Positions 129-53,301 of a stretch of DNA of 53,301 nt are shown here, one piece after another; within the stretch, counting starts at the first letter, position 1, and each line of letters starts with the position of its first letter. The stretch lies in assembly GCA_028066985.1 (NCBI GenBank), contig JALCBB010000001.1, forward strand, positions 1 through 53,301, written 5' to 3'. This stretch comes from Alphaproteobacteria bacterium (lineage in GTDB: Bacteria; Pseudomonadota; Alphaproteobacteria; JALCBB01). The notes beneath the pieces are model-generated. The model did no database searches, was not told the origin of the DNA, and saw only the letters and a list, made by a program, of their open reading frames with translations. The translations under genes were made by a program, and so were the position numbers.

Positions 129-181
129 TGTGTGTCGTCCCTCAATATATAAATCCGTTACAAGTCCAATTTCTTAGAAAT

Positions 182-280: not shown

Positions 281-378
281 AAATCGCGCCATGAGGTGTC
301 CAAAAAGGACAAAAAGGCGGCAGGGTCAATGCGTCCAGTGGATCAAACGCCGCCACAACTCCAAAATACCAAAATCGG

Positions 379-989: not shown

Positions 990-1472
990 GTGCAATCGCT
1001 CTTCCTCGGTACATTCGAGAACCGAATCGACTCCAAAGGTCGCGTGCTCGTGCCCGCCGCCTTCAGGCAGCCCCTCAGTCAGGACGGGCAGCCCGGACTC
1101 GTCTGCTATCCCGATATCAATCAGACCGCGCTCGAAGGCGTCAGTCTGCGCACGCTCAACGACTCCTTCAACGCGCTGCGCGAGCAGTACGAAATGTATT
1201 CGCCCGAATACGAAGCCGTGATGTCCATTCTCAGCGGCGCCGCAAACCTCTCGTGGGACAGCGGCGGACGCGTTCAACTCCCGGAACGGCTCCTCAAAAA
1301 AGCCGGCATCCGCAGCGATGTCGTTTTCGTCGGACTCGGCGACAGGTTCCGTATCTGGGATCCGAACCTCTACCAGAAGCACCTCGGTGTTGTCGCGAAG
1401 ATCACGGAGAAGGGCAACATCACCATCTCGCTCGCTTCCGCGCGGAGAGACGGTCAGGGTAAATCGGAATGA
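990..1472 (+). CDS. mraZ: Transcriptional regulator MraZ
   Basis: 160-aa ORF with N-terminus MQSLFLGTFENRIDSKGRVLVPAAFR typical of MraZ; first gene of the dcw cluster. Confidence 0.9.
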   Translation: MQSLFLGTFENRIDSKGRVLVPAAFRQPLSQDGQPGLVCYPDINQTALEGVSLRTLNDSFNALREQYEMYSPEYEAVMSILSGAANLSWDSGGRVQLPERLLKKAGIRSDVVFVGLGDRFRIWDPNLYQKHLGVVAKITEKGNITISLASARRDGQGKSE

Positions 1473-1816
1473 CGACACCGCCCGCCTCCTCTGTCGTCAC
1501 AGACGCGACCCGCGACAACGGACACCTGCGCGGTCGTCCGTCACTGTCATTGTTAAAGGTCAATGGCGCCTCGCCCACTAATGCCACAGGCCACGCCACG
1601 GGGGACACCTTTCATGGTCGTCCGTCACCGTCATTGTCCTTTAACAATTTTAATTTTTTGTCGGCAGCGCCGACAGGCATCAGTGGGTGCGGCTCGCTTG
1701 AGCCGACACCGTTAACAGTCAATGACACCTCGCCCACTAATGCCAAGGGACGTGCCACGGGGGACGCCTTTCATGGTCGTCCGTCATCGGCGCTCAAAAG
1801 CGGGGCGAAACAATGA
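1469..1816 (+). other. Repeat-derived bridging ORF (115 codons); coding status doubtful
   Basis: ATG 1469 overlaps the mraZ stop (ATGA) and the stop overlaps the rsmH ATG 1813 (ATGA). Nearly the whole ORF is translated repeat DNA (GDTFHGRPSPSLSFNNFNFLSAAPTGISGCGSLEPT). Confidence 0.25.
1519..1790 (+). repeat. Repeat array: X hairpin, distal half-arm, X hairpin, full arm (1640-1744), X hairpin
   Basis: X = GGACACCTTTCATGGTCGTCCGTCACCGTCATTGTCC-like units at 1519-1554, 1600-1639 and 1759-1790. Arm hairpin GTCGGCAGCGCCGAC at 1660-1674; CCCACTAATGCC at 1574-1585 and 1733-1744. Confidence 0.85.
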
Positions 1817-3142: not shown

Positions 3143-5416
3143 ATGCCGAACACGCCTTCGCCGTCTCCCGACTTTCTGCTCGGACGCGACCTCCTCTCGC
3201 ACACCGGCGCGATGCGGCGGCTGCACCGTCACCGCTCGTGCCAGAACTCCGGCGCCGACCCGATGGAGCGCAGAAATCTCAGAATCCTCGTCTGCCTCGT
3301 GCTCGTCTGCTGCGGCTTCGCGACCATCATCTTCAGACTCGGCGCCGTCATGGCTCCGTGGGACAACGACAGCGCGAAACTGCCGCACCCCATCCGCGCA
3401 ATCGCCGACGCCGCCGAAAAACCCGTCATCACCGACAGGCACGGCGAAATCCTCGCAATGGATCTGCCCGCGTATTCGCCGTACGCGCGTCCGAAGGAAA
3501 TGCGGAACCCGCGCCGCGCCGCGCGACTGCTCGCGTCGGCGATTGAGGACGCCAGTCCCGTTGAACTCGCCGCCGCGTTCCAGAACGCCGCCGACAACGA
3601 CGAGCCGTTCGTCTGGGTCGCGCGGTATATTTCGCCCCGCGAGGCGCGCGCCGTGATGAAGCGCGGCGTCGTCGGCGTGGAAATGATGGCGACGAAACGG
3701 CGCAGTCATCCGCTCGGAAGTCTCGCGTCGCATGTCACCGGCTTCACCGACATTGACGGCCGCGGCCTCGCCGGAATGGAACGGCTCGCGTCGGCGCGCG
3801 CGGAAGAGGGCAGGGGATCGGGTGAGGAGATCGCGCCTGTCGCGCTGTCGCTGGATCTGCGCGTTCAGCATGCGCTGGAGGAAGAACTTCACGCCACGAT
3901 GACGAAATTCCAGGGCAAGGGCGCCGCCGGCGTCGTGATGGACGCGAACAGCGGCGAAATTCTCGCTATCGCTTCGCTGCCGAATTTTCATCCCGACCGG
4001 CGCGAGATGCTTAACGAGGAAAATCGTTTTAATCGCGCCACGCTCGGCGTCTACGAGTTCGGCTCCGTTCTCAAGCCGCTCACCTACGCGACCGTGATGG
4101 AGGCGACGCCGCGCGGCGAGTGGAGCGCGCTCTTCGCTTCGCGTTATTCAACTTCGCCGATGCGGATTCCGGGATACACGATCACGGATTATCGTCCGAA
4201 ACATGCGAATGTGAAATTCGCGGAGGGGATGATTCATTCGTCCAATGTGACGACGGCGAAGGTGATGCGCCGCATCGGCGCGCCGTCGCTCAGGGACGGC
4301 TTCCACAGACTCGGCATGGCCGAAATCGCGCCGCTGGAACTCGGCGAGCGCGGACTGCCGCAGATGCCCGCGAAGTGGGGGCCGACTGAATCGGTCACGG
4401 CGTCTTACGGGCACGGGATCGCGGTGTCGCCTGTGCATATTGTTCGCGCCTTCGCGGCGGTCGTGAACGGCGGAGTGCTGCCGTCGCCGACATTGCTTAA
4501 GGGCGGCGCGGCGCCGGGCGCGCGGGTGCTGTCGGCGGAGACTTCGGCGGTGATGCGGCGTTTGTTGCGGCTCGTCGTGCTTGAGGGAACGGGGCGCAAG
4601 GCGGACGCGGACGGGTATCTTGTCGGCGGCAAGACGGGGACTGCCAATCAGGTTTCGCCGAGCGGCGGCTATGACGACAATCTTCGCATCGCGTCTTTTG
4701 TCGCGGCGTTTCCGATGGATGCGCCGCGGTATGTGACTTTTATGATGGTGGAGAATCCGGTGCCGAGCGAGGACAGTTTCGGTTTCGCGACGGGCGGCTG
4801 GGTCGCGGCGAGCGCGACGCGTCTGCTTGTGGCGCGGATCGCGCCGTTGCTTGGCGTGCTGCCGCGTGACAGCGAGGAGTTTGACACGGGCGCCCTTAAT
4901 TTTCTGAACACACCCGATGTTAACGCGGCACCCTTTGTCGTCGTCAACAATGAAACAACGGATTACAGCCCCGGCATCTTGTCTGTCGTCCACAACACCA
5001 TTGACAGCAATGACATTGACAATGAAGCGACCGACTACAAACCCGGCGCCTTGTCTGTCGTCCACAATAAAACAACGGACAACGAAACGGACACCTTGCA
5101 TGGTCGTCCGTCACCGTCGTTGTCTCTTAATAATTTTAATTTTTTGCGGGCAGCGCCCGCGGGCATCAGTGGGCGCGGTTCGCTTGAGCCAACAGCGCGC
5201 CAGTCCGAAAATCCTCTCCCACTAATGCCGAAGGCCGTCCAGGAGGATGCGATAACCGCCGACGCCTCGCCCGTCAATGAGTCCATTGACGCCATTGACG
5301 CGATCATCGCCGACACTTTAAGCGTCCAGCCCGTTGATGAAACCGTCATCCCCGCCGCCGATGAAACGCCCGCGGACATCACCTCGCTCATTCAACTCGT
5401 CCTCAGCGGAACCTGA
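3143..5416 (+). CDS. ftsI: Peptidoglycan D,D-transpeptidase FtsI (PBP3) with a repeat-containing C-terminal extension
   Basis: SxxK (GSVLKP), SxN (HSSNV) and KTG (GGKTGTA) motifs. Start uncertain (internal Met at MERRNLRILV possible). The last ~170 codons include a repeat insertion. Confidence 0.9.
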   Translation: MPNTPSPSPDFLLGRDLLSHTGAMRRLHRHRSCQNSGADPMERRNLRILVCLVLVCCGFATIIFRLGAVMAPWDNDSAKLPHPIRAIADAAEKPVITDRHGEILAMDLPAYSPYARPKEMRNPRRAARLLASAIEDASPVELAAAFQNAADNDEPFVWVARYISPREARAVMKRGVVGVEMMATKRRSHPLGSLASHVTGFTDIDGRGLAGMERLASARAEEGRGSGEEIAPVALSLDLRVQHALEEELHATMTKFQGKGAAGVVMDANSGEILAIASLPNFHPDRREMLNEENRFNRATLGVYEFGSVLKPLTYATVMEATPRGEWSALFASRYSTSPMRIPGYTITDYRPKHANVKFAEGMIHSSNVTTAKVMRRIGAPSLRDGFHRLGMAEIAPLELGERGLPQMPAKWGPTESVTASYGHGIAVSPVHIVRAFAAVVNGGVLPSPTLLKGGAAPGARVLSAETSAVMRRLLRLVVLEGTGRKADADGYLVGGKTGTANQVSPSGGYDDNLRIASFVAAFPMDAPRYVTFMMVENPVPSEDSFGFATGGWVAASATRLLVARIAPLLGVLPRDSEEFDTGALNFLNTPDVNAAPFVVVNNETTDYSPGILSVVHNTIDSNDIDNEATDYKPGALSVVHNKTTDNETDTLHGRPSPSLSLNNFNFLRAAPAGISGRGSLEPTARQSENPLPLMPKAVQEDAITADASPVNESIDAIDAIIADTLSVQPVDETVIPAADETPADITSLIQLVLSGT
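4925..5235 (+). repeat. Repeat element inserted in frame in the ftsI 3' region
   Basis: CCTTTGTCGTC leader; two copies of a ~69-bp direct repeat (CTTGTCTGTCGTCCACAA at 4978-4995 and 5050-5067); X hairpin 5087-5126; AT run; arm hairpin GCGGGCAGCGCCCGC 5146-5160; CCCACTAATGCC 5218-5229. Same layout as 12096-12412. Confidence 0.85.
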
Positions 5417-10969: not shown

Positions 10970-12090
10970 TGCCGCACCGACTCATTCCGAAACGCGACAA
11001 CAGCGTCTTCTCGCAGTGGTGGTGGAGCGCCGACCTGCCCGTGCTTGCCGCGCTCGCCGCGCTCATCTTCTTCGGGATGCTCCTCTCGTTCAGCGCGACC
11101 CAGCCGCTCGCCGCCAGTCTCGGACAGCAGCACTACGCCCGCGCGATGCCGCATATGGCGTATGCGCTGGTCGCGCTCGCGCTGCTTGTCGCGGTGTCGT
11201 TTCTCAATGCTGACGCGGTTCGGCGCGCGGCGATTATCGCGTGCGCGGCGTGTGTCGTGCTGCTGGTCGCGACGCTTGTGATCGGCACCGAGATCAAGGG
11301 CGCGCGGCGGTGGCTTAATGTGTTCGGGTTTTCGGTGCAGCCGAGCGAGTTTGCGAAGCCGGCTTTCGCGGTCGCGGCGGCGTGGCTGCTGACGGCGGCG
11401 GGCGGGAGGTTTCGGCATCCGGCGTCGCTGGCGGCGTTCGGGCTTTGCGCGCTGCTTTGCGGCTTGCTGCTGCTTCAGCCGGACATCGGGCAGACGGTGA
11501 TTGTCATTTTTATTTTCGGCGCCGAATTTTTTGTCGCCGGGTTTTCGCCTTTTCTTGTGGCGGCGCTGGCTTTGCTTGGCGCGCTGATTTTGCTCGGCGC
11601 GTATCATCTTTTTCCGCATGTGGCGGAGCGGATTAATATTTTTCTGGACCCGGCGTCCGGCGACACTTATCAGGTGGAGCGTTCGCTTGAGGCGTTCGGC
11701 GCCGGCGGGTGGCGCGGTGTCGGGCTGCTGGACGGGCAGATCAAGCAGAAACTTCCGGACCGGCAGTCTGATTTTATTTTCGCTGTTATCGGCGAGGAGA
11801 TGGGTTTCGTTTTCGCGCTGCTTGTGGTTCTGACATTTATGTTTATCGCGGTGCGGGTGCTGTTGAAACTTTCGCGCGAGCCGCGGGCGTTCGCGGCTGT
11901 CGCGGGTGTGGGGCTGCTTACGCAGTTTATCGCGCAGACTTTTGTCAATGTCGGTTCAAGTTTGCAGATGATTCCGACGAAGGGGATGACGCTGCCGTTT
12001 TTGAGTCATGGCGGGTCTTCTTTGCTGGCGATGGGGCTTGGAATGGGCGCGCTCCTGGCACTCCTCAGAAGTCCACATATAACACGATGA
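10969..12090 (+). CDS. ftsW: Peptidoglycan glycosyltransferase FtsW (SEDS family)
   Basis: Refined start ATG 10969 (TGATG overlap with the murD stop). QPSEFAKP, PDRQSDFIF and GMTLPFLSHGGSS motifs. Confidence 0.93.
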   Translation: MPHRLIPKRDNSVFSQWWWSADLPVLAALAALIFFGMLLSFSATQPLAASLGQQHYARAMPHMAYALVALALLVAVSFLNADAVRRAAIIACAACVVLLVATLVIGTEIKGARRWLNVFGFSVQPSEFAKPAFAVAAAWLLTAAGGRFRHPASLAAFGLCALLCGLLLLQPDIGQTVIVIFIFGAEFFVAGFSPFLVAALALLGALILLGAYHLFPHVAERINIFLDPASGDTYQVERSLEAFGAGGWRGVGLLDGQIKQKLPDRQSDFIFAVIGEEMGFVFALLVVLTFMFIAVRVLLKLSREPRAFAAVAGVGLLTQFIAQTFVNVGSSLQMIPTKGMTLPFLSHGGSSLLAMGLGMGALLALLRSPHITR

Positions 12091-12416
12091 CAAACGACTC
12101 TCACACCGCCTTTGTCGTCAATGACACAGATGACACTTTGTCTGTCGTCAACCATGCTTTGACGACCGCGACAACTGCCCCCGCCTCTTTGTCTGTCGTC
12201 AATGCACACAATGACAACGACAATGACAATGGACACCTGCATTGTCGTCCATCACTGTCATTGTCCTTTTTTATTTTTTTGCAGGCAGCGCCTGCGGGCA
12301 TCAGCGGGTGCGGCTCGCTTGAGCCAACACCTTTGCCAGTCCAAGTCGCTCGCTCACTAATGCCAGAGGCGGTGCTTCGGGGGGGCGACTTGCATGGTCG
12401 TCCATTCACATCATGA
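12087..12416 (+). other. Repeat-derived bridging ORF (109 codons); coding status doubtful
   Basis: ATG 12087 overlaps the ftsW stop (ATGA) and the stop overlaps the murG ATG 12413 (ATGA). The arm is read in the same frame as in ftsI (FFIFLQAAPAGISGCGSLEPT). Confidence 0.25.
12096..12412 (+). repeat. Repeat element between ftsW and murG, flanked by the direct repeat ATGACAAA
   Basis: CCTTTGTCGTC leader, CTTTGTCTGTCGTCAA twice, X hairpin 12229-12266, T run, arm hairpin GCAGGCAGCGCCTGC 12281-12295, CTCACTAATGCC 12353-12364, terminal AGAGGCGGTGCTTCG, second X 12382-12410. ATGACAAA at 12087-12094 and 12413-12420. Confidence 0.85.
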
Positions 12417-21805: not shown

Positions 21806-22654
21806 ATGGACGCCCAGCCGCAGACCACCATCGCCGCGCCCGTCTCGTGGGAGGGCTACGGACTGCATCGCGGACGGCACGGTGTCGCGTCGGTGCTGCC
21901 CGCCGAGGAGAATGTCGGCTACAGAATTCGCAAGTCGGGCGGCGATCCGAAAGACGACATTAAAGTGTCTCCGCTCTATGCGGAGCCGTCGCCGTTGCAG
22001 ACGCAGTTGCGGCGCGGCGGACAGCGCGCGTATACGGTTGAACATTTGTTGTCGGCGTGTTACGGGCTGGGGCTGGACAATGTTGTGATTGAGTTGAGCG
22101 AGGAGGAGCCTCCGATACTTGACGGCAGCGCGTTTTTGTTCGCGCGCGACATTCATGCGGCGGGCGTGCGCGAGCAGGGGGCGCCGCGCCGGGTGCTGGA
22201 GGTTGCGGAGCCTTTTACGCACAGCGAGGGCGCGACGGAGATGCGTTTTCTGCCGTCGTCGGCGCTGGAGATTGTGGTGGAGATTGATTTTGAGGCTTTG
22301 GCTATCGGGTATCAGCGGCTGGAGATTTGTCTGACGCCGGAGCGGTATTTGCGCGAGGTCGCGCCGGCGCGGACTTTTCTGTTGCGGGAGGATTTGCCGT
22401 TTATGCGGCGGTATGGTCTGGGTCGCGGGGGGAATTTGAAGAACGCGATTATTGTGGATGGTGCGCGGGTGCATAGTCAGGAGCCGTTGCGGTTTGCGGA
22501 TGAGTTTGTGCGTCATAAGTTGCTGGATCTTGTGGGGGATCTGGCGTTATTGGGGGCGCCGTTGCGGGGCCGTGTGGAGGTTAACCGGCCTGGTCACAGT
22601 GTTACGATTAATGCGCTCCGCGAGTGGACAACGAAGCACCCCCTTCGGCATTAG
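21806..22654 (+). CDS. lpxC: UDP-3-O-acyl-N-acetylglucosamine deacetylase LpxC
   Basis: VEHLLSACYGLGLDN, PILDGSA and FVRHKLLDLVGDLAL motifs. The last ~9 codons and the TAG stop lie inside a repeat arm. Confidence 0.93.
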   Translation: MDAQPQTTIAAPVSWEGYGLHRGRHGVASVLPAEENVGYRIRKSGGDPKDDIKVSPLYAEPSPLQTQLRRGGQRAYTVEHLLSACYGLGLDNVVIELSEEEPPILDGSAFLFARDIHAAGVREQGAPRRVLEVAEPFTHSEGATEMRFLPSSALEIVVEIDFEALAIGYQRLEICLTPERYLREVAPARTFLLREDLPFMRRYGLGRGGNLKNAIIVDGARVHSQEPLRFADEFVRHKLLDLVGDLALLGAPLRGRVEVNRPGHSVTINALREWTTKHPLRH

Positions 22655-22775
22655 TGGGAGTCTGACTTAGACAGTCACGATAGCCGCTCAAGCGAACCGC
22701 GCCCGCTGATGCCCGCAGGCGCTGCCCGCAGAAAAATTAAAATTTAATTTGACTATTATATATAAGGGGCTGACT
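22626..22775 (-). repeat. Solo arm plus partial AT core, overlapping the lpxC 3' end
   Basis: GGACAACGAAGCAC terminus at 22626, GGCATTAGTGGG 22647-22658, GACTTAGACAGTCACGAT, GCTCAAGCGA, CCCGCTGATGCC 22702-22713, hairpin 22715-22729, then a degenerate core (TTGACTATTATATATAAGGGG). Confidence 0.85.
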
Positions 22776-26044: not shown

Positions 26045-27259
26045 ATGAAAAAGATTTCGGTCAAAGGCTCCGTGGTTGAGTTGGACGGCGACGAGATGAC
26101 GCGCGTCATCTGGCGCGAAATCCGCGAGAAGTTGATCCTGCCGTTTCTGGATGTGGACCTGGTGTATTTTGATCTGGGTCTGCCTTCGCGCGACAAGACC
26201 TCCGACAAGGTGACGCTGGACGCGGCGGCGGCGATACGCGAGCATCGCGTGGGCGTGAAGTGCGCGACGATCACGCCGAACGCCGAGCGTGTTGAAGAGT
26301 TCGGACTCAAGGAGATGTGGCGCTCGCCGAACGGCACGATCCGCAATTATCTGAACGGCACGGTGTTTCGGGAGGCGATTATCTGTCGGAATGTGCCGCG
26401 TCTTGTTCCGAACTGGACGCGTCCGATTATTGTGGCGCGTCATGCGTATGGCGATCAGTATCGCGCGACGGACATGCGGATCGCGGGGCGCGGTGTTTTG
26501 TCTATGCGCTTTGAGCCTGAGAACGGCGGCGAGGCGACGGAGATGGTGGTGCGCGAGTTTCCCGGAGGCGGCGTGGCGCTGTCTATGTTCAACGAGGACG
26601 AGTCTATGGAGGGCTTTGCGCGCGCGTGTTTCAGTTATGCGCTGGAGCGGGGTGTGGATGTGTATTTTTCCACGAAGGACACGATTTTGAAGGTTTATGA
26701 CGGACATTTCCGCGACTGTTTTCAGGCGGTGTTTGACGGCGAGTTCGCGGAGTTGTTTCGGGAGCGCGGGTTGAAGTACGAGCATCGTCTGATTGACGAC
26801 ATGGTTGCGTCCGCGTTGAAGTGGTCTGGCGGTTATTTGTGGGCGTGCAAGAATTATGATGGAGATGTGCAGTCTGACATGATTGCGCAGGGTTTCGGTT
26901 CTTTGGGTCTGATGACATCGGTTTTGCTGACGCCGGACGGACGGGTTGTTGAGGCGGAGGCGGCGCATGGCACGGTGACGCGGCATTTTCGGATGCATGA
27001 GCGCGGCGAGGCGACGAGCACGAATCCGATGGCGACGATTTTCGCGTGGACGCGGGCGTTGGGGTGGCGCGGACGGTTTGACGGCACTCCGGAGGTTGTG
27101 GAGTTTGCGGGGAAGTTGGAGGGTGTGTGTGTGGGCGCGATAGAGTCCGGGAAGATGACGAAGGATCTGGCTTTGCTGGTGGGTCCTGAGCAGGGCTGGA
27201 TGGAGACCTTCGCGTATCTGGACTACCTTGCCGAGCGTTTAAGCGAAGCCCTTAATTAA
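26045..27259 (+). CDS. icd: NADP-dependent isocitrate dehydrogenase (404-aa homodimeric, eukaryote-like subtype)
   Basis: N-terminus MKKISVKGSVVELDGDEMTRVIWREIREKLILPFLDVDL plus NYDGDVQSD and GTVTRH motifs. Confidence 0.95.
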   Translation: MKKISVKGSVVELDGDEMTRVIWREIREKLILPFLDVDLVYFDLGLPSRDKTSDKVTLDAAAAIREHRVGVKCATITPNAERVEEFGLKEMWRSPNGTIRNYLNGTVFREAIICRNVPRLVPNWTRPIIVARHAYGDQYRATDMRIAGRGVLSMRFEPENGGEATEMVVREFPGGGVALSMFNEDESMEGFARACFSYALERGVDVYFSTKDTILKVYDGHFRDCFQAVFDGEFAELFRERGLKYEHRLIDDMVASALKWSGGYLWACKNYDGDVQSDMIAQGFGSLGLMTSVLLTPDGRVVEAEAAHGTVTRHFRMHERGEATSTNPMATIFAWTRALGWRGRFDGTPEVVEFAGKLEGVCVGAIESGKMTKDLALLVGPEQGWMETFAYLDYLAERLSEALN

Positions 27260-27597
27260 AGGGACAAGCGAAGTGCGACCTTTGGCATTAGTGGGCGTTT
27301 GACTAAGACATTCACGATGTCGGCTCAAGCGAAAACACGCCAACTAATGGGTGCGGGCTAGCCCGCAAAAAAATAAATAATAATTTATTGACTATTTAAG
27401 GGGTCAATTAAATAAATTGCTTTCTTATTAATTGACAAATAATGGAATGGTTATTGTCTATTAAATTAATTCTTTTAATTTTATTTTTTTGCAGGCAGCG
27501 CCTGCGGGCATCAGCGGGTATCGCTCGCTTGAGCCGACATCGTGACTAGTCTTAGTCACACGCCCACTAATGCCAAGGATCAGTCTTCGGAGTCGTC
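27260..27597. mobile_element. Composite mosaic palindromic element (MITE-like), between convergent icd and the RND permease
   Basis: Left arm: AGGGACAAGCGAAG, GGCATTAGTGGG 27284-27295, GACTAAGACATTCACGATG, GCTCAAGCGA, hairpin GCGGGCTAGCCCGC 27353-27366. AT core 27367-27490. Right arm: hairpin GCAGGCAGCGCCTGC 27491-27505, GCTTGAGCC, CCCACTAATGCC 27563-27574. Confidence 0.7.
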
Positions 27598-30951: not shown

Positions 30952-31228
30952 CCGGTGGGAGCAGCCCCTGGCATTAGCGGGCGAGGAATCCAGGCTTGCC
31001 GTGACGGCCGCTCAAGCGAGCGACGCCCGCTGATGCCCGCGGGCGCTGCCCGCAAAAAATTAAATTTTAATGGACAGACGATGAATGGACGAACCGTCGG
31101 GCGGCTGTCTGTCCATTTATTTTTTTTGTCGGCAGCGCCGACAGGCGACAGTGGGTGCGGCTCGCTTGAGCCGACGCCGTTAACAGTCAATGACACCCCG
31201 CCCACTAATGCCAAGGGCGGTGCCATGG
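30952..31228. mobile_element. Composite palindromic element with a variant core, intercistronic in the RND operon
   Basis: GGCATTAGCGGG 30970-30981, CCCGCTGATGCC 31026-31037, hairpin GCGGGCGCTGCCCGC 31039-31053. The core holds a 9-bp stem TGGACAGAC 31071-31079 / GTCTGTCCA 31107-31115. Second hairpin GTCGGCAGCGCCGAC 31128-31142; CCCACTAATGCC 31201-31212. Confidence 0.7.
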
Positions 31229-31272
31229 AAAGTCCAAAGGCGGCACTGACGAATGACAGAAACTTGCCCATA

Positions 31273-34751: not shown

Positions 34752-35025
34752 CTCCCCCGACGACCAGCCCTTGGCATTAGTGGGCGTTTGACTTAGACAG
34801 TCACGATGTTCGCTCAAGCGAGCCGCACCCACTGATGCCCGCAGGCGCTGCCTGCAAAAAAATAAATTAAAGATTAAATGGACTATTTAAGGGGTCAATT
34901 AAATAAATTGTTTTTTTATTTTTTAATTTTTTGCGGGCTAGCCCGCACCCATCTGCTGGCATCGTTCGCTTGAGCGGCTGTTGTGAATGTCTTAGTCAAA
35001 GTCTTACTAATGCCAAAGGCTGTTT
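34752..35025. mobile_element. Composite mosaic palindromic element (short core), between convergent msrP and hemB
   Basis: GGCATTAGTGGG 34773-34784, CCCACTGATGCC 34828-34839, hairpin GCAGGCGCTGCCTGC 34841-34855, core 34856-34932, hairpin GCGGGCTAGCCCGC 34933-34946, CTTACTAATGCC 35003-35014. Confidence 0.7.
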
Positions 35026-36033: not shown

Positions 36034-36077
36034 TTTAAGGAGAGTGCCGTGCTTGAGGCTTGAGCGCAAGGGGCGAG

Positions 36078-36509
36078 ATGTCGGTCACGATTCACGAAGA
36101 GGACTTTGATCCGTGGGAGCGGCTGCGTTTGCTGTCGCGGCTCTGGGACGAGGGACGCGCGGGCGCGCTCGCGTCGTTCATCGGTGTCGCGCGCGCGGAC
36201 GAGGCTGACGGCGTGGCGGTTTCGGCGATTTTTCTGGAGCATTACGCGGGGATGACGGAGCGCGTTCTGGGCGAATTGGAGGACGAGGCGGCGCGTCGCT
36301 GGGGGTTGCTGGCGACATGTGTTGAGCATCGTGTCGGACGCGTTGATGTGGGTTGTCCGATAGTTCTGGTTGGTGTGTTGTCGGAGCGGCGGGGCGATGC
36401 TTTTGCGGCTTGTCGTTTTCTTGTGGAGGAGTTGAAGTCCCGCGCGCCGTTCTGGAAGTGCGAGGAGCGGACAGACGGCACCAGACACTGGGTTGAAGGC
36501 AATAATTAA
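36078..36509 (+). CDS. moaE: Molybdopterin synthase catalytic subunit MoaE
   Basis: 143 aa from ATG 36078, with FIGVAR, LEHYAGMTE and PFWKCE-type motifs. Confidence 0.85.
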   Translation: MSVTIHEEDFDPWERLRLLSRLWDEGRAGALASFIGVARADEADGVAVSAIFLEHYAGMTERVLGELEDEAARRWGLLATCVEHRVGRVDVGCPIVLVGVLSERRGDAFAACRFLVEELKSRAPFWKCEERTDGTRHWVEGNN

Positions 36510-36840
36510 AAGACAGACGAAGTGCCACATTCGGCATTAGTGGGCGTCTGACTAAGACAGTCACGATGTTTGCTCAAGCGAGCCGCACCCACTGATGCCC
36601 GCAGGCGCTGCCTGCAAAAAAATAAAATTAAAAAGAAATTAATTTATTTAATAGACACCATTAATTGTCTATTAATGAAAAGGCAATTGATTTAATTGAC
36701 CCCTTAAATAGTCAATAAATTATTATTTATTTTTTGCGGGCTAGCCCGCACCCGTCTGCTGGCATCGTTCGCTTGAGCCGACACCTTAAGAGTCTAAAAT
36801 TCTCGCCCACTAATGCCAGAAGCCGCACTTCGCCTGTCTC
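36510..36840. mobile_element. Composite mosaic palindromic element (archetype), between convergent moaE and ychF
   Basis: Terminal inverted repeats AAGACAGACGAAGTGCC... / ...GCACTTCGCCTGTCTC. GGCATTAGTGGG 36533-36544, CCCACTGATGCC 36588-36599, hairpin 36601-36615, AT core 36616-36735, hairpin GCGGGCTAGCCCGC 36736-36749, CCCACTAATGCC 36806-36817. TAATTAA on both flanks. Confidence 0.75.
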
Positions 36841-36848
36841 TTAATTAA

Positions 36849-36876
36849 TGCCAGAGGCGGTGCTTCGTTGTCTCTG
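36849..36876. repeat. Isolated element terminus fragment
   Basis: TGCCAGAGGCGGTGCTTCGTTGTCTCTG repeats the last ~28 nt of an arm, bracketed by TAATTAA (36842-36848) and TTAATTA (36877-36883). Confidence 0.6.
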
Positions 36877-36880
36877 TTAA

Positions 36881-37990
36881 TTAGACATTGAAGCGGAAGT
36901 TCATCACATCACCATCGCAAACAACATAATCACGCCCCTCATGTCTCAATAAACCACGCTCCCTCGCGCCAGCCTCGCCGCCACACTCCGCAAAGTCCGC
37001 AAACGAAACCGTCTCCGCCCGAATAAATCCGCGCTCCATATCACTGTGAATACACCCCGCCGCACCAGGAGCCAGCACACCGCCAACCACCGTCCACGCC
37101 CGCGTCTCCTTCGGACCCGTCGTGAAAAATGTTATCAGCCCAAGACGACCATAACCCTCCCGAACCAGTCGCTCCAGACCGGACGCCTCCAGACCCGCGT
37201 CGCTCAAAAACTCCCGACGCTCGTCCGCATCGCCTAAACAACTCACCTCCGACTCAAACGCCGCCGACAACATCACAAATCCAAAATCACACTCGCCAGC
37301 CCGCGACCTCACACCCTCCGAATACTCATTGCCGCTCACCACATCCCCCTCGCCGACATTCGCCACATATACACAGTCCTTCGCCGTCAGCAGATTCAAA
37401 CCGCGCCACGCCCCCAGAACCTCCGCCGACTCCGACTCGCCCGGCGCCGCCGTACGCGCCGCCCGTCCCGCCTCCAAAGCGCCGCGCGCCATATCAATCA
37501 CGCGCATCCGCAAAACCGCTTCCTCGTCTCCGCCGCGCACACGCTTCTCCAATCCCGACGCCTGACGCTCCAGCGACTCCAGGTCGGCCAGCATCAGTTC
37601 CGTCTCCACGAGTTCCGCGTCGCGCAGCGGATCCACCTCGCCCTCCGTATGACTCACCTCGCCGCCGAAACAACGCAAAACATGCAGTATCAAACCCGCC
37701 TCCCGCACCTGCCCCAGAAAACGATTGCCCAGCCCCTCGCCCGTGCTTGCGCCGCGCACGAGTCCGGCGATGTCGACGACCTCCAGGGTCGCCGGCGTCA
37801 CCTTTTCGGAGCGCGACATCTCCGCGAGCCGCGACAGCCGCGCGTCAGGCACCGCGACCCGTCCGAGGTTCGGATCAATCGTGCAGAACGCGAAGTTCGC
37901 CACACGCGCCTGCTCGCCGCTCACCAATGCATTAAATAATGTGGACTTCCCCACATTCGGCAAACCGACAATCCCGCACGAAAACCCCAT
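36881..37990 (-). CDS. ychF: Redox-regulated ribosome-binding ATPase YchF
   Basis: MGFSCGIVGLPNVGKSTLFNAL P-loop N-terminus and a C-terminal TGS-like domain. Confidence 0.97.
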   Translation of the reverse strand: MGFSCGIVGLPNVGKSTLFNALVSGEQARVANFAFCTIDPNLGRVAVPDARLSRLAEMSRSEKVTPATLEVVDIAGLVRGASTGEGLGNRFLGQVREAGLILHVLRCFGGEVSHTEGEVDPLRDAELVETELMLADLESLERQASGLEKRVRGGDEEAVLRMRVIDMARGALEAGRAARTAAPGESESAEVLGAWRGLNLLTAKDCVYVANVGEGDVVSGNEYSEGVRSRAGECDFGFVMLSAAFESEVSCLGDADERREFLSDAGLEASGLERLVREGYGRLGLITFFTTGPKETRAWTVVGGVLAPGAAGCIHSDMERGFIRAETVSFADFAECGGEAGARERGLLRHEGRDYVVCDGDVMNFRFNV

Positions 37991-40321: not shown

Positions 40322-40414
40322 GGGGGTATTGTGGCTGGAGTGGGGGTTTTGTGGAGTTTAGGGGTGGATTTTGGCGAGGTCAAGTGCGACTTTCGGACAA
40401 TTTAGGGACAATTT

Positions 40415-40454
40415 AGAGACAGACGAAGAGCCGCCCTTGGCATTAGTGGGCGCC
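40415..40454. repeat. Isolated element terminus fragment
   Basis: AGAGACAGACGAAGAGCCGCCCTTGGCATTAGTGGGCGCC is the outer ~40 nt of an arm, followed by TTAATTAA (40456-40463) and then a full element. Confidence 0.6.
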
Positions 40455-40463
40455 TTTAATTAA

Positions 40464-40794
40464 GGGACAACGAAGCACGGCCTCTGGCATTAGTGGGAGA
40501 TTGACCAAGACATTCACAATAGTCGCTCAAGCGAGCGATGCCAGCAGATGGGTGCGGGCTAGCCCGCAAAAAAAATTAAAAATTAATTTTGACTATTAAT
40601 GGGGTCAATTAAATAAATTGTCTTTTCATTAATAGACAATTAATGGTGTCTATTAAATAAATTAATTTCTTTTTAATTTTATTTTTTTGCAGGCAGCGCC
40701 TGCGGGCATTAGTGGGCGCGGTTCGCTTGAGCGGCTGTTGTGAATGTCTTGGTCAAACTCCCACTAATGCCAAAGATCGCACTTCGTTTGTCTC
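40464..40794. mobile_element. Composite mosaic palindromic element (inverted relative to 36510-36840), between the prs start and the GNAT stop
   Basis: GGGACAACGAAG end, GGCATTAGTGGG 40486-40497, hairpin GCGGGCTAGCCCGC 40554-40567, AT core 40568-40688, hairpin GCAGGCAGCGCCTGC 40689-40703, CCCACTAATGCC 40760-40771, end CACTTCGTTTGTCTC. Confidence 0.75.
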
Positions 40795-40795
40795 T

Positions 40796-41521
40796 TTAAC
40801 TTAGTGTCGGGTCCCTTTTAAAGAGGATTTTCCCGGTAAGGGCGCTGAGAGAAACTTTTTGCACCCCGTCAGAATCGAAGTTGTCAGGGTCAAGGTATGT
40901 CTGAAAACATCCCTTAAGCCGAAGCCACTCCTTATCTATCGCGGCAAACCACGCAGTGTCCCTGTTCCTGCCCTTGTAGACAGTCGCCTGTCTGAAAATT
41001 CCCTCGTAAGAAAGTCCAAGCCTCTGCGCGGCGCGGCGAGACCTGAGATTGAGAGCGTCGCACTTCCACTCATACCTGCGATACCCGTTGTCAAAAGCCC
41101 ACTGCATCATCAGAAACATCGCCTCCGTCGCCGCGACCGTGTTCTGCAGCAAAGGCGAAAAATTAATGTGTCCGACCTCTATAGACCGATCACGCGGCTT
41201 GATCCGCAGATAACTCGCGACACCGCAAGCCTCGCCCGTGTCTCGCCGTGTAAGAGCGAAATAAACCGGATCACGAAGACCCTCAACACTCCTCAGCCAC
41301 GCAATGTAGGACTCAAGAGTGTCAAAAGGACCGTACGGCATATAAGTCCAGATGAGATTCTGCTCGTCTCTCCGATTCGCGGAGAAGAGTTGCGTCCCGT
41401 GCTTGTCGGCCGAGAGCGGAGAGACAGAGACATACCGCCCGCTCAAGGTGATGTTGTCGGGGGTCGGCGGCGTTTCGGTGTCCGCGACGGGTTCGCCGAT
41501 TTGGGGAGTGGAGGCGCTCAT
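40796..41521 (-). CDS. GNAT family N-acetyltransferase (RimJ/RimL-like)
   Basis: 241 aa from ATG 41521 (MSASTPQIG). Acetyltransf_3-like region IEVGHINFSPLLQNTVAATEAMFLMMQWAFDNGYRRYEWKCDALNLRSRRAAQRLG. The longer 501-aa track ORF is rejected. Confidence 0.85.
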   Translation of the reverse strand: MSASTPQIGEPVADTETPPTPDNITLSGRYVSVSPLSADKHGTQLFSANRRDEQNLIWTYMPYGPFDTLESYIAWLRSVEGLRDPVYFALTRRDTGEACGVASYLRIKPRDRSIEVGHINFSPLLQNTVAATEAMFLMMQWAFDNGYRRYEWKCDALNLRSRRAAQRLGLSYEGIFRQATVYKGRNRDTAWFAAIDKEWLRLKGCFQTYLDPDNFDSDGVQKVSLSALTGKILFKRDPTLS

Positions 41522-41620: not shown

Positions 41621-42220
41621 ATGAGGGTTCATGAAATTTTCGAGCGCTCGCTTGGACATCAGGAGCGTTTTGGCGGCTTTTTCGTCTTCGGCGGACGCGC
41701 GCCGCGCTCCGAGTATTTGTCGGGGACGATCATTCTGTTTTTGTCCGGATTTTTGTTCAGTCTGCTGGTGCATGTGATTTACACGCGGTGCGGACGGCCT
41801 GTTTTCTGTTCTTATGTGTTGTCGCCGTTGTATGCGTTTAATGTGGCGCTGCTGGTGTTTCTGGTGCTGGCGATGCTGTGTCAGCGTATTCGTCGTTTTC
41901 ACGACTTCGGAGTTTCGGGGTTGTTCGCGATTTTGACGGCGCCGTTTGTGCCGTTTATTTTGTGGGCGTATTTCACCTGGCCGCAATTTTCTCATATTGA
42001 CGGACTGCTTCCTCATGCGCCTTCGTTTTACGAGACGCGTCTGGTGCGCGGGGTGTTGTTTCTGGTGCTTGGGGTGTTTGTGTTGTTGCCGTTTATTATG
42101 CCGGGGAATCGCCGCGGGGAGTATTATGATCTGGAGTGGCAGGCGCGGACGCATCGCCTTGATGTACTTGCGCGCGATCGCCGCACGCAGGAGCGCAGGA
42201 AGGTCCGCGGCAAAACTTGA
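41621..42220 (+). CDS. DUF805 domain-containing inner membrane protein
   Basis: GGRAPRSEY, RIRRFHDFGVSG and PGNRRGEYY resemble the DUF805 (YhaH-like) motifs; 4-5 TM helices. The GA of the TGA stop is the first two bases of the next element. Confidence 0.75.
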   Translation: MRVHEIFERSLGHQERFGGFFVFGGRAPRSEYLSGTIILFLSGFLFSLLVHVIYTRCGRPVFCSYVLSPLYAFNVALLVFLVLAMLCQRIRRFHDFGVSGLFAILTAPFVPFILWAYFTWPQFSHIDGLLPHAPSFYETRLVRGVLFLVLGVFVLLPFIMPGNRRGEYYDLEWQARTHRLDVLARDRRTQERRKVRGKT

Positions 42221-42551
42221 GACAGACGAAGAGCAGTCTGTGGCATTAGTGGGCGTGTGACTAAGACATTCACAACATCCGCTCAAGCGAACCGCGCCCA
42301 CTTAAGCCCGCAGGCGCTGCCTGCAAAAAAATAAAATTAAAAAGAAATTAATTTATTTAATAGACACCATTAATTGTCTATTAATGAAAAGACAATTTAT
42401 TTAATTGACCCCATTAATGGTCAAAATTAATTTTTAATTTTTTTTTGCGGGCTAGCCCGCACCCATCTGCTGGCATCGCTCGCTTGAGCCAACGCCTTAA
42501 AAGTCTGAAATTCTCGCCCGCTAATGCCATAGGCCGCCCTTCGTCTGTCCC
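42219..42551. mobile_element. Composite mosaic palindromic element, between DUF805 and aapJ
   Basis: GAGACAGACGAAG 42219-42231, GGCATTAGTGGG 42242-42253, hairpin 42310-42324, AT core 42325-42446, hairpin GCGGGCTAGCCCGC 42447-42460, CCCGCTAATGCC 42517-42528, end CCTTCGTCTGTCCC. Confidence 0.75.
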
Positions 42552-42747
42552 CTAATTATTAAAGCATCGGCCGGCACAGGGGCGAAAATGCCCCGAAAAC
42601 GCCCGAAAATCCCCCAAATTCAATGCTCCCCAAAGACTCGACAAACCCGCCAACTTCCAGTAAAAATTACCCCGCCGACAGAATCACCCCGTCGGCACAA
42701 GGCAGGACCCGAAATCCGCCAGAATCACAACCCACCAGGAGCCCAAC

Positions 42748-47306: not shown

Positions 47307-47325
47307 CGCGCGCGCCCTTTCATCA

Positions 47326-47615
47326 GGGGACAAACGAAGCACGGCCTCTGGCATTAGTGGGAGTTTGACCTAGACAGTCACGATGTTGGCTCAAGCGAAA
47401 CACACCAACTAATGGGTGCGGGCTAGCCCGCAAAAAATAAATAATAATTTATTGACTATTTAAGGGGTCAATTAAATAAATTAATTTCTTTTTAATTTAA
47501 TTTTTTTTGCAGGCAGCGCCTGCGGGCATCAGTGGGCGCTGTTTGCTTGAGCCAACGCTTTAAGAGTCTAAATTTCACGCCCACTAATGCCAAATGCCGC
47601 ACTTTGTCTGTCTCC
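47326..47615. mobile_element. Composite mosaic palindromic element (core lacking the middle module), between aapP and alaX
   Basis: GGGGACAAACGAAG end, GGCATTAGTGGG 47350-47361, hairpin GCGGGCTAGCCCGC 47418-47431, core 47432-47508, hairpin GCAGGCAGCGCCTGC 47509-47523, CCCACTAATGCC 47580-47591, end CACTTTGTCTGTCTCC. Confidence 0.75.
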
Positions 47616-47693
47616 TAGGTATTGTTTCCCTATTAACAAAATGAAATTAAACTGCTAAAACAATATGACCATCACCGCCAGCCCCGAACTCCA

Positions 47694-49740: not shown

Positions 49741-49752
49741 TTCAGCAATTAA

Positions 49753-50085
49753 AGAGACAACGAAGCACCGCCCCTGGCATTAGTGAGACTTTGACTAAGA
49801 CATTCACGGCGTTGGCTCAAGCAAACAGCGCCAACTAATGCCCGCAGGCGCTGCCTGCAAAAAATAAAATTAAAAGAATTAATTTAATAGACAATAACCA
49901 TTCCATTATTTGTCAATTAATAAGAAAGCAATTTATTTAATTGACCCCTTAAATAGTCAATAAATTATTATTTATTTTTTGCGGGCTAGCCCGCACCCAT
50001 CTGCTGGCATCGCTCGCTTGAGCCAACAGCGTGACTTTCTTAGTCAAACTCCCACTAATGCCAAGGGCCGCACTTCGCTTGTCTC
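49753..50085. mobile_element. Composite mosaic palindromic element, between convergent OsmC-fusion and dehydrogenase genes
   Basis: AGAGACAACGAAG 49753-49765, GGCATTAGTGAG 49776-49787, hairpin GCAGGCGCTGCCTGC 49844-49858, AT core 49859-49980, hairpin GCGGGCTAGCCCGC 49981-49994, CCCACTAATGCC 50051-50062, end CACTTCGCTTGTCTC abutting the stop CTA 50086-50088. Confidence 0.75.
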
Positions 50086-51048
50086 CTAATTGGAGCGATC
50101 CACAACAACGACCTCATAACCCTCCTCCTCAGGCTCGTCATCCACAATCTCCGCCGGAAAACCATCCGCCCGCACATCCAAACCGCACGCCTCCTCCAAT
50201 CGCCGCACCACATCCGGAGAATTTCCCCGCGCCCCATACCGCTCCATACCATCCCGAAATATCCCGTACACCACCGGCGACACCTCCACAGGCACGCCAA
50301 ACTCCCGCGCCAGTCCCCCGAAAATCCCCATGTCCTTCAACACAAGGTCCATCGTGAAATTAATGTCCCGACTCCCGTTCAATATCACCTGCCCCTCCGT
50401 CTCATGCACAAACGAATTCCCCGACGACACCCGCACCGCCTCGTAAGTCACGCCCATATCCATCCCCGACGCGCGCGCCACCATAAACGCCTCGCACAAC
50501 GACACCAGATGCACCGACGCCAGATAGTTCGTCACTATCTTCAACACCGACGCGCTCCCCAGATCACCCGTATGCAAAATCCGCCGCCCCATTTTCGTCA
50601 GCAGCGGAAACATCAGGTCAAAGGTCTCCCGATCCCCGCCCGCAAAAATAGAAATGTTCCCCGTCGCCGCCCGATGACATCCCCCCGACACAGGACAATC
50701 CATACTCCGCACCCCCAGCGCCGACAACTTCGCGGCAAGACGCTTAACCTCGCCATGCTCCGTTGAACTCATCTCCGCCCAGATTGTGCCGGGCGTCACG
50801 CCTTCAATCAGTCCGCCCTCGCCCTCAACGACCAGCGCGCTCACCTCGGGACTCGGCAGACATGTGATCACCACATCACACGCCTCGCCCATCTCCGCCG
50901 CCGACTCGCCCCATCGCGCGCCGCCGTCAAGGAGTCCGCGCGCCGCGTTTTTGTCCAGGTCGCGCACCGTCAGACTGACGCCGTTCCGCAGCAGACTGCC
51001 GGCGAGTTTGCCGCCGACCTGTCCCAAGCCTATGAATCCGACCTTCAT
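50086..51048 (-). CDS. NAD(P)-dependent oxidoreductase, beta-hydroxyacid dehydrogenase (HIBADH-like) family
   Basis: Refined start ATG 51048 (MKVGFIGLGQVGGKLAGSL Rossmann motif); DCPVSGG and KIVTNYL regions. Confidence 0.85.
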   Translation of the reverse strand: MKVGFIGLGQVGGKLAGSLLRNGVSLTVRDLDKNAARGLLDGGARWGESAAEMGEACDVVITCLPSPEVSALVVEGEGGLIEGVTPGTIWAEMSSTEHGEVKRLAAKLSALGVRSMDCPVSGGCHRAATGNISIFAGGDRETFDLMFPLLTKMGRRILHTGDLGSASVLKIVTNYLASVHLVSLCEAFMVARASGMDMGVTYEAVRVSSGNSFVHETEGQVILNGSRDINFTMDLVLKDMGIFGGLAREFGVPVEVSPVVYGIFRDGMERYGARGNSPDVVRRLEEACGLDVRADGFPAEIVDDEPEEEGYEVVVVDRSN

Positions 51049-53073: not shown

Positions 53074-53080
53074 GTCAACG

Positions 53081-53301
53081 AGGGACAACGACGACCCGCC
53101 CTTGGCATTAGTGGGAGATTGACTAAGACATTCACGATGTCGGCTCAAGCGAGCGATGCCGGCAGATGGGTGCGGGCTAGCCCGCAAAAAATAAATAATA
53201 ATTTATTGACTATTTAAGGGGTCAATTAAATCGGCGTGCAGCCTCCGGCATTAGTGGGAGATTGACTAAGACATTCACGATAGCCGCTCAAGCGAACCGC
53301 A
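53081..53301. mobile_element. Composite element interrupted in its core by a second arm; truncated by the window end
   Basis: AGGGACAACGACG end, GGCATTAGTGGG 53104-53115, hairpin GCGGGCTAGCCCGC 53172-53185, core up to ...GGGGTCAATTAAAT (about 53230). A new arm then starts with GGCATTAGTGGG at 53247-53258 in the same orientation. Confidence 0.65.

Follow-up and report, generated by a model that had tools for sequence, protein, structure and literature searches.

The window analysed here, the first 53,301 nt of contig JALCBB010000001.1 of an Alphaproteobacteria bacterium (assembly GCA_028066985.1, positions 1-53,301, forward strand), carries the dcw cell-division cluster on the + strand and a series of ordinary housekeeping genes. 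At the ends of these genes lie very abundant palindromic, non-coding elements of about 340 bp, which form a previously undescribed repeat family in a sponge symbiont. The G+C content of the window is 60.5%, lower than the two-thirds given in a first-pass annotation of the sequence. NCBI contigs of metagenome-assembled genomes (MAGs), ENGE22-1 ENA assemblies and one Logan assembly encode a YchF protein identical at every residue to that of the window, and a second window protein is encoded on the 2,274,910-bp contig ena:ERZ21781341:ctg64743c and on PRJEB9378 sponge-metagenome contigs. PRJEB9378 is the Ianthella basta metagenome (PMC10356861). The source organism is probably the sponge symbiont 'Candidatus Luteria ianthellae', whose nearest relative was reported at ~72% average amino-acid identity (PMC10947273), a value compatible with the 69-70% YchF identity of the relatives compared below.

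The window was compared with contigs of the same organism from other assemblies (L006-L014), of which L008 and L010-L013 represent a second strain lineage (lineage 2), ~1% from the window in genes, and with contigs of relatives (L019 and L020). Gene content was examined over 73 kb, namely the window and 10 kb on either side on the 2.27-Mb contig. Arm copies were collected by repeat finding and with an nhmmer profile, and one end fragment by sequence reading.

The repeat family is dense, dispersed and undescribed

The first-pass annotation had described a dense family of composites, each with two inverted arms, together with solo arms. Counts of the conserved boxes far exceeded chance: box GGCATTAGTGGG (≤2 mismatches) occurred 40 times in the window against 2.5 expected, a number reached by 0 of 100 shuffles, and box GCTCAAGCGA (≤1 mismatch) occurred 26 times against 6.6 expected. 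The nhmmer profile recovered all nine composites and all five solo arms where they had first been placed, and added partial copies at 1546-1610 and 40412-40454, while sequence reading yielded a fragment at ~36848-36881 consisting only of the terminal inverted repeat (TIR). In total, 23 arms were counted in the window, and the family covered 3585 bp or 6.7% of it, a value that replaces the earlier hand tally of roughly 4 kb of 53 kb. The motif RGACAAY was enriched 2.7-fold across the window (52 occurrences against 19 expected).

Outside the window, 10-11 further arms were present in 18 kb of flanking DNA on the 2.27-Mb contig at similar density, which shows that the dispersed copies extend beyond the window. 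The closest relative found (L019, a 99-kb contig of the same gene order whose YchF is 69% identical) contained no arm in 21 kb of syntenic DNA even at nhmmer E≤10, and a 4.1-kb contig with 70% YchF identity (L020) contained no arm either.

Contigs of several short-read assemblies (L009, L011, L012, L013 and L014) stop inside arms at both ends, which is probably why short-read MAGs shatter (the published MAG has 2.01 Mb and the long contig 2.27 Mb). Frequent breaks of this kind, and the ability of short-read MAG assemblies to mis-join repeats, would fit elements that were assembly chimeras or products of a purely local duplication. We give this explanation almost no weight: the 2.27-Mb long contig shows the same structures, as do no fewer than 10 independent assemblies made from different sponge individuals in different years, a flipped state of one element is repeated in five assemblies, and copies are spread among unrelated genes over 73 kb or more. 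A single difference was traced to assembly: at ~2645-2744 of L007 (window 44104-44158) ENGE22-1 scaffold_15 has an N run and a duplicated stretch, which is a scaffolding gap and not a biological difference.

As the annotation had stated for the window, Pfam scans of open reading frames (ORFs) and gene tables showed no gene for a transposase, an integrase or a REP-associated tyrosine transposase (RAYT; REP, repetitive extragenic palindrome) there; the same held for the 10-kb flank on either side. Its view that the family has no name also stood. The sole Rfam match above the gathering score in the window was tRNA-Ser, and a sensitive scan of 34700-36900 returned only sub-threshold plant miRNA hairpins. 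No family match was obtained among plasmids and phages (distant blastn mode) or viral contigs, and the pattern from the P1 stem described below to GCTCAAGCGA had no match in JGI metagenomes; the single JGI match to a second pattern lay inside the coding region of a sigma-54 activator gene and was a chance match. The sequences that define REP and Correia elements did not fit the family. A literature search by box sequences and accessions returned no description of the repeat, and the two host papers (PMC10947273, PMC10356861) are silent on DNA repeats. A protein search with the arm-spanning ORF 1469..1816 matched only itself; such ORFs are therefore rarely called by gene callers and give no route to collecting copies. 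A tRNA-derived origin of the arms was rejected, as ARAGORN detected only tRNA-Ser. These results indicate that the family is real, above chance and undescribed in any resource searched. Its kind, the bacterial intergenic mosaic or MITE-like repeat (MITE, miniature inverted-repeat transposable element), is already known; what is unusual is the combination of long arms of two types, a modular A+T core in G+C-rich DNA, the supply of stop codons and inversion in place.

The elements consist of two asymmetric arms around a modular A+T core

The complete unit has the order outer TIR ATTAARGRGACARACGAAG (usually preceded by TA), A arm, A+T core, B arm and TIR. Composites measure 274-344 bp and have neither a transposase ORF nor coding capacity. 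The asymmetry of the A and B arms, the TA/TTAA flank, the overlap with stop codons, the 44-bp modular core and the in-place inversions between strains, all described below, go beyond the first-pass annotation.

Each arm is ~110 nt long and starts with an outer TIR of the form ATTA(A/G)(G)RGACA(R)(A)CGAAG, followed by a variable stretch of 8-9 nt, box GGCATTAGTGGG, a variable segment (commonly TGACTAAGACAKTCAC) and box GCTCAAGCGA. In type A arms the inner part has CGCACCCACTGATGCC, which pairs with the first box to form a 12-bp stem (P1), then a GC hairpin (with the sequence GCAGGCgctGCCTGC or a variant of it) and finally an A-run. In type B arms it consists of GATGCCAGCAGATGGGT, then GCGGGCTAGCCCGC and an A-run. 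An inner box complementary to GGCATTAGTGGG, previously ascribed to every arm, is thus a property of type A, and type B has GATGCCAGCAGATGGGT in its place. The inner segment of type B resembles a flipped A segment, its reverse complement being CGCACCCATCTGCTGGCATC. The terminal motif recurs within the arm (TAAGACAGTCACGATG vs TAAGACAGACGAAG), which gives a layout like that of inverted repeat-direct repeat (IR-DR) ends.

The imperfect TIRs noted earlier are present, although they extend further outward, to ATTAARG, usually with TA before it. About 25 arm ends have RGACARACGAAG in common, ~20 of these with ATTA(A/G)G before it, and TA precedes ATTA in 13 of the ~20 ends, TA being rare in the surrounding DNA. 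TA is found on both sides of the archetype (36505) and of the 40459 element. A TIR of the ATTAARGRGACARACGAAG type occurs at both ends of the 36505, 40459 and 49748 elements, and the core motif RGACARACGAAG at both ends of the 42219 and 47324 elements. As is expected of MITEs, the elements are small, non-coding, multi-copy and dispersed within the window and both 10-kb flanks.

The A+T cores are 74-124 bp long. Seven of the eight cores have 10-16% G+C against 55-59% in their own arms, in line with the nearly pure A+T core described before; the odd one is that of the 30952 element, with 36% G+C in the core and 69% in the arms. The core is also modular, since it comprises one to three copies of a 44-bp module (Tandem Repeats Finder period 44), each bearing the palindrome TTGAC-N10-GTCAA or TAGACA-N8-TGTCTA, whose half-sites change together.

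Inverted arm pairs were of the A+B kind in 11 of 12 cases, whereas random pairing of 20 A and 12 B arms predicts ~47%, and all eight solo arms were of type A. These results indicate that the propagating unit is the asymmetric A-core-B element and not a chance meeting of arms. Two pairs appear to be recent copies, both in inverted orientation: the 122-nt cores 27368-27489 and 49859-49980 are 100% identical, and 40568-40794 is 95% identical to 42219-42445 over 227 nt.

Hairpin pairing in the arms is kept by compensatory changes

As single-stranded DNA the whole archetype composite was predicted to fold into a long hairpin (-78.1 kcal/mol vs -34.7 ± 4.0 for shuffles, z = -10.8). Across 20 A arms, 93% of cells were paired in the P1 stem, compared with 99% in the GC hairpin. 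Double compensatory changes were seen in 13 cells at two GC-hairpin pairs, the stem occurring as GCAGGC/GCCTGC, GCGGGC/GCCCGC, GTCGGC/GCCGAC and GGCGGC/GCCGCC. The covariation score of these arms was 0.156, compared with 0.086 in shuffles and ≤0.083 with partners slid. The kept pairing reflects selection, or templated repair, for hairpin potential. Two further helices of the predicted Y-shaped arm had no support from covariation: P2 was paired in 64% of cells, and one P3 pair was broken in 9 of 20 copies. RNA folding of the arm was stronger in the sense (z = -4.6) than in the antisense direction (z = -2.6), and T:G positions in P1, which are compatible with wobble pairing, favoured sense RNA (16/20 at column pair 6/64). 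These predictions are a hint of arm structure at the RNA level and no proof of it.

Elements occupy gene 3' ends and overlap stop codons

Judged from gene positions in the window, elements occupied all five convergent gaps, none of the six divergent gaps and eight tandem gaps, four of the latter inside operons. The earlier statement that nearly every intergenic gap is filled is correct for convergent gaps and overstated otherwise, for all divergent gaps and some tandem gaps are free.

In seven genes the stop codon falls within an element end or overlaps it. The TIR of 27255..27597 contains the icd-like stop (27257-59), the left TIR of the archetype the moaE stop TAA (36507-09), the TIR of 40459..40801 the GNAT stop (40796-98) and that of 49748..50090 the NAD_binding stop (50086-88). 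The DUF805 stop TGA (42218-20) overlaps the first TIR bases of 42219..42556, and the ychF stop (36881-83) shares one A with the TIR of the fragment 36848..36881. The lpxC stop (22652-54) is the TAG of the P1 box GGCATTAGTGGG, and the last lpxC codons are therefore element-derived. The C-termini of YchF and of the oxidoreductase match those of the relative, so the elements there follow native gene ends. These are natural examples of repeats inserting at, or supplying, stop codons.

The arms were also considered as intrinsic terminators, and this was rejected: for transcription coming into the element, the run after each GC hairpin is of A and not of U, and at the far side the hairpin has its T-run in front, so they do not act as such in either direction. 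The exact consensus for integration host factor (IHF), WATCARNNNNTTR, was absent from all cores, and a reading of the cores as IHF sites, as in repetitive IHF-binding palindromic (RIP) elements, is unsupported.

Such placement could mean that the elements are maintained by the host as structural parts of gene 3' ends, like the bacterial interspersed mosaic elements (BIME) and RIP of E. coli. They might then serve as supercoil, gyrase or nucleoid-protein sites, as an end point of convergent transcription, or as stabilising or RNase III-processed structures of 3' untranslated regions, and their uniformity would come from gene conversion rather than transposition; a mobile origin would be compatible with this. 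The full occupancy of convergent gaps and the freedom of divergent ones suit the idea, as do four convergent gene pairs in which the stops on either side are no more than a few bases from the element's outer boxes and a canonical terminator is lacking, so that transcription must end inside the element. Each 44-bp module is a hairpin with a 6-bp stem followed by a T-rich tract in both directions, and 42405-42424 was flagged as terminator-like. The P1 stem and GC hairpin preserved by compensatory changes, and the P1 T:G positions and folding z-scores that favour sense RNA, point the same way. An A+T centre flanked by GC clamps is a geometry favouring cruciform extrusion, to which the core of these elements would be suited. 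However, the GC hairpins with their A-runs are not intrinsic terminators, and a normal terminator (53044-53066) precedes the element at the window end, which is thus not needed for termination there. The closest relative lacks elements at syntenic gaps, orientation and module number vary freely between strains, the dcw operon has its solo arms in antisense to the mRNA, and exact IHF-consensus sites are missing from the cores. We regard maintenance by the host as an outside possibility, the strongest among the alternatives considered.

The same distribution recalls REP sequences and their RAYT-associated doublets (REPINs). The arms could be single-stranded hairpins multiplied by a domesticated HUH (RAYT-like) transposase, the composites being equivalents of REPINs or BIMEs. 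Inverted doublets dominate over singlets, hairpin potential is kept with compensatory changes, 3'-end and in-operon sites are used while promoter gaps are avoided, no IS-like parent lies nearby, and the family is seemingly confined to one lineage. In contrast, the arms are ~110 nt long instead of 20-40 nt, and no conserved GTAG or CGTC tag stands by the P1 stem or GC hairpin, the P1-adjacent bases being variable (CGTC, CGTT, AGAT, CGAG). True outer TIRs flanked by TA, present in these elements, are missing from REPINs, and no RAYT gene was present in the 73 kb examined. This origin is accordingly judged unlikely.

Element interiors are inverted and reshuffled between strains

Between the two lineages 310 mismatches were found over 11 kb, and 57 and 61 of them fell in two 200-bp bins over the elements 47324-47619 and 49748-50090, whereas other bins had 0-18. 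At 49748-50090 lineage 2 keeps the outer arms and has the interior flipped from one GCTCAAGCGA box to the other, on which five independent assemblies agree. At 47324-47619 the interior of L008 is flipped up to the TIR, with 260/312 positions identical in reverse complement vs 233/318 in direct orientation. Strains that are 1-3 bases apart in 13-21 kb still differ by a 43-bp module indel. Past the window end, in the 53076 element, L006 adds further modules and an inverted B arm and the module content of L010 differs; just past the end two strains differ by one extra arm and several modules. The elements are thus a natural example of quasi-palindromes flipped in place between strains ~1% apart, and provide strain markers of very high variability for work on the symbiosis in Ianthella basta.

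Four elements have, in the B-proximal module, a weak promoter-like site (TTGACC-16-AATTAT, 9/12 match) directed outward through the B arm; relative to the genes nearby it shows no consistent direction. Together with the interior of 49748-50090, inverted exactly between two GCTCAAGCGA boxes in five assemblies, the constant direction of this site in the same module would fit programmed invertons, in which a dedicated recombinase acting at the inverted GCTCAAGCGA boxes flips an interior with a sigma-70-like promoter and switches sense and antisense transcription of neighbours at many loci. This is highly improbable. The breakpoints are not fixed (the GCTCAAGCGA boxes in 49748-50090, near the TIR in 47324-47619), and orientation is uniform per lineage over at least five assemblies, which looks like a fixed difference and not rapid switching. 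Moreover, the B arm is mostly antisense to neighbours and sense only at prs and the SBP_bac_3 gene, no recombinase gene occurs in the examined 73 kb, and the promoter match is weak. Given variable breakpoints and orientation uniform within each lineage, we see the probable source of the flips in the element's own inverted repeats, through recombination or template switching between them, rather than in a programmed switch. We also consider it very unlikely that the family consists of mobile invertons, that is, hundreds of copies whose promoter-bearing A+T core is flipped between inverted boxes by a host or element recombinase. Were this so, an obligate sponge symbiont would gain a heritable, genome-wide switch of sense and antisense transcription at gene ends.

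A MITE-like family surviving at gene ends is the favoured explanation

We favour, with a probability of roughly 55%, a new lineage-restricted, MITE-like non-autonomous family that targets TA/TTAA, survives mainly at stop codons and gene ends, and is reshuffled by repeat-mediated recombination. In its favour are the defined ends, the copying of the A-core-B unit as a whole, the dense and dispersed copies, the near-identical cores, the placement at gene ends, the lack of coding capacity, the absence from the closest relative found and the turnover between strains. The propagating unit would run from a TA (or TTAA) site through TIR ATTAARGRGACARACGAAG, the ~110-nt A arm, one to three 44-bp modules and the B arm to the second TIR and TA. 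A transposase encoded elsewhere in the genome would recognise the TIR; each arm also holds a TIR-like direct repeat (TAAGACAGTCACGATG), a layout like that of IR-DR ends. The enzyme would place the unit into TA-containing sites, which in a genome of 60% G+C should be mostly stop codons and gene-end DNA, and selection would spare only insertions at or just within gene 3' ends; elements would consequently abut or supply stop codons and avoid divergent promoter regions. Inserted copies would not remain fixed. As every copy is a long quasi-palindrome in which inverted repeats are nested, recombination or template switching from one repeat to another could flip the interior in place, and the same processes could gain or lose 44-bp modules and convert copies against one another, giving a mosaic. 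Solo A arms may be products of decay or recombination.

Several observations weigh against this explanation. The 73 kb contained neither a cognate transposase nor a full-length parent element. The strains and the relative compared offered no clean empty site, and as TAATTA and TTAATTAA are palindromic they may be the element's own. TA is lacking at several ends (42219, 47326, 53081), and at ~110 nt the arms exceed what is usual for the ends of bacterial MITEs. The strains differ by flips or reshuffles at occupied sites throughout, with no new insertions. Finally, a purely selfish TIR element needs no kept hairpin pairing.

By extrapolation only, ~7% of the DNA would amount to roughly a thousand arms in the ~2.3-Mb genome of a dominant uncultured sponge symbiont. 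If a cognate transposase turns up, the family would offer a tractable case of MITE expansion during host restriction.

Comparison with known repeat families

The annotation had likened the architecture to BIME/RIP, RIME, Correia and RPE elements. In its ends the family appears most like Correia or IS630-type MITEs, and in its arrangement most like BIMEs. Correia elements (CREE, Neisseria) have a TA-type target, a feature suggested for the present family. The two have in common abundant non-coding intergenic elements with TIRs, no known transposase nearby and long RNA hairpin potential, and their ends are loosely alike (ATTAA...AGGACAA vs ATTAA-AGGGACAA). IS630/Tc1-mariner bacterial MITEs (RUP, Nezha) and Tc1 IR-DR ends have TA-flanked TIRs, and are small, non-coding and of high copy number, with a repeated terminal motif. 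The present elements resemble them in the TA-flanked TIR ends, small size, lack of coding capacity, high copy number and the terminal motif repeated in the arm. They differ in that no cognate IS630-family transposase was seen over the same 73 kb, the arms are much longer than typical IS630 TIRs, and the target-site duplication is only a candidate.

The Correia TIR reads TATAGTGGATTAA(C/A)A...CAGGACAA (PMC5039591). Compared with the 26-bp form TATAGTGGATTAA(C/A)A..(C/T)C(A/G)G(G/T)AC(A/G)(A/G), the present ends match only ATTAA and GGACAA, and no alignable homology is evident. CREE measure ~100-160 bp with a single short core, whereas the present elements have ~270-345 bp, one to three 44-bp modules, two structured arm types of ~110 nt and a modular A+T core in a G+C-rich host. 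The host lineages differ as well, as ours is an alphaproteobacterial sponge symbiont.

With BIME/RIP and REPIN-RAYT systems the family shares inverted mosaics of palindromic units with linker motifs, a preference for 3' ends and operons and absence from divergent promoters. Doublets are common, singlets occur, and hairpins are kept by compensatory change. The occupancy of 5/5 convergent, eight tandem and 0/6 divergent gaps is the arrangement of BIMEs and REPINs, which is analogy and not homology. REPs are 20-40 nt with a GTAG or CGTC tag (PMC3733652). They have no outer TIR or TA flank, whereas the present family has ~110-nt arms and no tag, with no RAYT seen in the 73 kb, and differs from BIME/RIP in cores that lack the exact IHF consensus.

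Like Rickettsia palindromic elements (RPE), some copies lie inside ORFs without breaking them (the ftsI extension, the bridging ORFs of the dcw operon and the lpxC C-terminus). Unlike RPE, they are mostly intergenic, are unrelated in sequence and architecture, and give no evidence that the encoded peptide segments matter. Small inversions at plastid hairpins and the fimS and hin segments likewise present a segment bounded by inverted repeats in both orientations among close relatives. In contrast to fimS and hin, the present family has neither fixed recombination sites nor an adjacent recombinase, and its orientation is seemingly fixed per lineage; flipping mediated by the repeats suits this behaviour better than a programmed switch does.

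Individual elements in the window

The archetype composite (36505..36845, 341 bp) has TA at 36503-04 and 36846-47 and, by sequence reading, TIRs at 36505-36522 (left) and 36828-36845 (right). In its A arm the P1 stem pairs 36533-36544 with 36588-36599, the GCTCAAGCGA box lies at 36572-36581 and the GC hairpin at 36601-36615. The A+T core (36616-36735) has two 44-bp modules. The B arm comprises a GC hairpin (36736-36749), a GCTCAAGCGA box on the - strand (36769-36778) and a P1-type box (36806-36817). Beside the archetype lies a solo outer-end fragment (36848..36881, - strand) made up of a P1-box end and TIR ATTAACAGAGACAACGAAG; the adjoining ychF stop (36881-83) reads TA plus the first A of this TIR. 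A truncated arm (40410..40455, + strand), with only the TIR and 5' P1 box, similarly adjoins the next full element and has a GGACAATTTAG tandem before it. Nested insertion was rejected as the origin of both fragments: the missing halves are not on the other side, and they are therefore truncations, not simple nestings.

Three composites lie between convergent genes. That at 27255..27597 (B-like arm, 124-bp core, A arm; TA at 27253-54) separates the icd-like gene from acrB, and on the acrB side the stop (27580-82) sits 6 nt outside the P1 box and the TIR is absent. The composite at 34752..35025 (A arm, 77-bp one-module core, B arm), between the molybdopterin-oxidoreductase gene and hemB, has degenerate outer TIRs and a core module inverted relative to the archetype. 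The third, at 49748..50090 (A arm, 122-bp core, B arm), lies between the hydrolase and NAD_binding genes.

Between codirectional genes are the composites at 40459..40801 (B arm, 121-bp core, A arm; TA at 40457-58 and 40802-03), which lies between the GNAT stop and the prs start (both -), at 42219..42556, made up of an A arm, a 122-bp core and a B arm, with DUF805 on one side and the SBP_bac_3 gene on the other (both +), and at 47324..47619 (B-like arm, 77-bp core, A arm), between the ABC ATPase gene and alaX-like (both +). An atypical composite at 30952..31237 (A arm, 74-bp core, A' arm) lies inside the cusB-acrB operon on the - strand, and its core holds the palindrome GGACAGAC...GTCTGTCC. 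The composite clipped by the window end (53076..53301) has a B arm, one core module and a second arm (A) in direct orientation, and lies downstream of the canonical terminator 53044-53066.

The solo A arm at 178..303 (-) is directly downstream of tRNA-Ser(CGA) (377-464, -), and that at 22624..22775 (+), with a core-module remnant, lies between the convergent genes lpxC and fic. Other solo arms are in the dcw operon and antisense to it or on its - strand: the partial arm 1546-1610 and the solo A' arm 1636-1768 (-, antisense) between mraZ and rsmH within the bridging ORF 1469..1816, the A arm 5122..5242 (-, antisense) within a C-terminal extension of ~165 codons of the ftsI ORF 3143..5416, and the A arm 12259..12383 (-) between ftsW and murG within the bridging ORF 12087..12416. 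A lone P1-type box GGAATTAGTGGG (782-793, -) was also seen in the gap upstream of mraZ, without other arm parts around.

Every repeat-bearing gap of the dcw operon is bridged by an open frame (1469-1816, 4950-5416, 12087-12416 and 16950-17229). ORF 1469..1816 has 4-nt overlaps with the mraZ stop and with the rsmH start, and 12087..12416 is likewise placed between ftsW and murG; the ftsI ORF extends through its repeat to within 7 nt of the murE start, and the ddl ORF overlaps the ftsQ start by 4 nt. Such frames may keep ribosomes on the dcw mRNA and so avoid polarity, a suggestion tempered by 15 of 22 arms having a stop-free antisense frame anyway. The operon is a natural example of repeats within an essential gene cluster that are still bridged by open reading frames.

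Other features of the region

A second short repeat, GGACRCCTTNCATGGTCGTCC, flanks the dcw solo arms at 1603-1623, 1762-1782, 5089-5109 and 12383-12403 (4 occurrences against 0.2 expected), and on the reverse strand (GGACGACCATG) looks like a ribosome-binding site with a start codon. The 3' extension of the ddl ORF contains 2.7 tandem copies of a 75-nt unit (16984-17181, 77% identity) that is rich in GGACAAT/ATTGTCC. Upstream of the ABC permease gene, 43820-44040 holds a ~100-bp direct repeat that is TIR-like, without arms, and contains TTAAAGGGGACAATCACCGT (a perfect 20-bp tandem, 43938-43977) and GGGACAAT-N9-ATTGTCC palindromes; L008 has a 20-bp insertion at 43959, near the perfect 20-bp tandem. 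At 13600-13780 and 17660-17800 the relative L019 has G+C-rich intergenic repeats of its own (GGGCC/GGGGC-type units between hemB and the oxidoreductase gene) as well as a C/T-rich tract upstream of acrB.

Among the genes, FtsZ (19511-21655) has 714 aa with a very long, low-complexity A/V/T/S/E/P-rich linker before the conserved C-terminal peptide, and a Fic-domain gene (23005-24159, -) is convergent with lpxC. A DarT gene with an ADP-ribosylglycohydrolase gene after it lies ~9 kb beyond the end of the window (L006 20308-21662).

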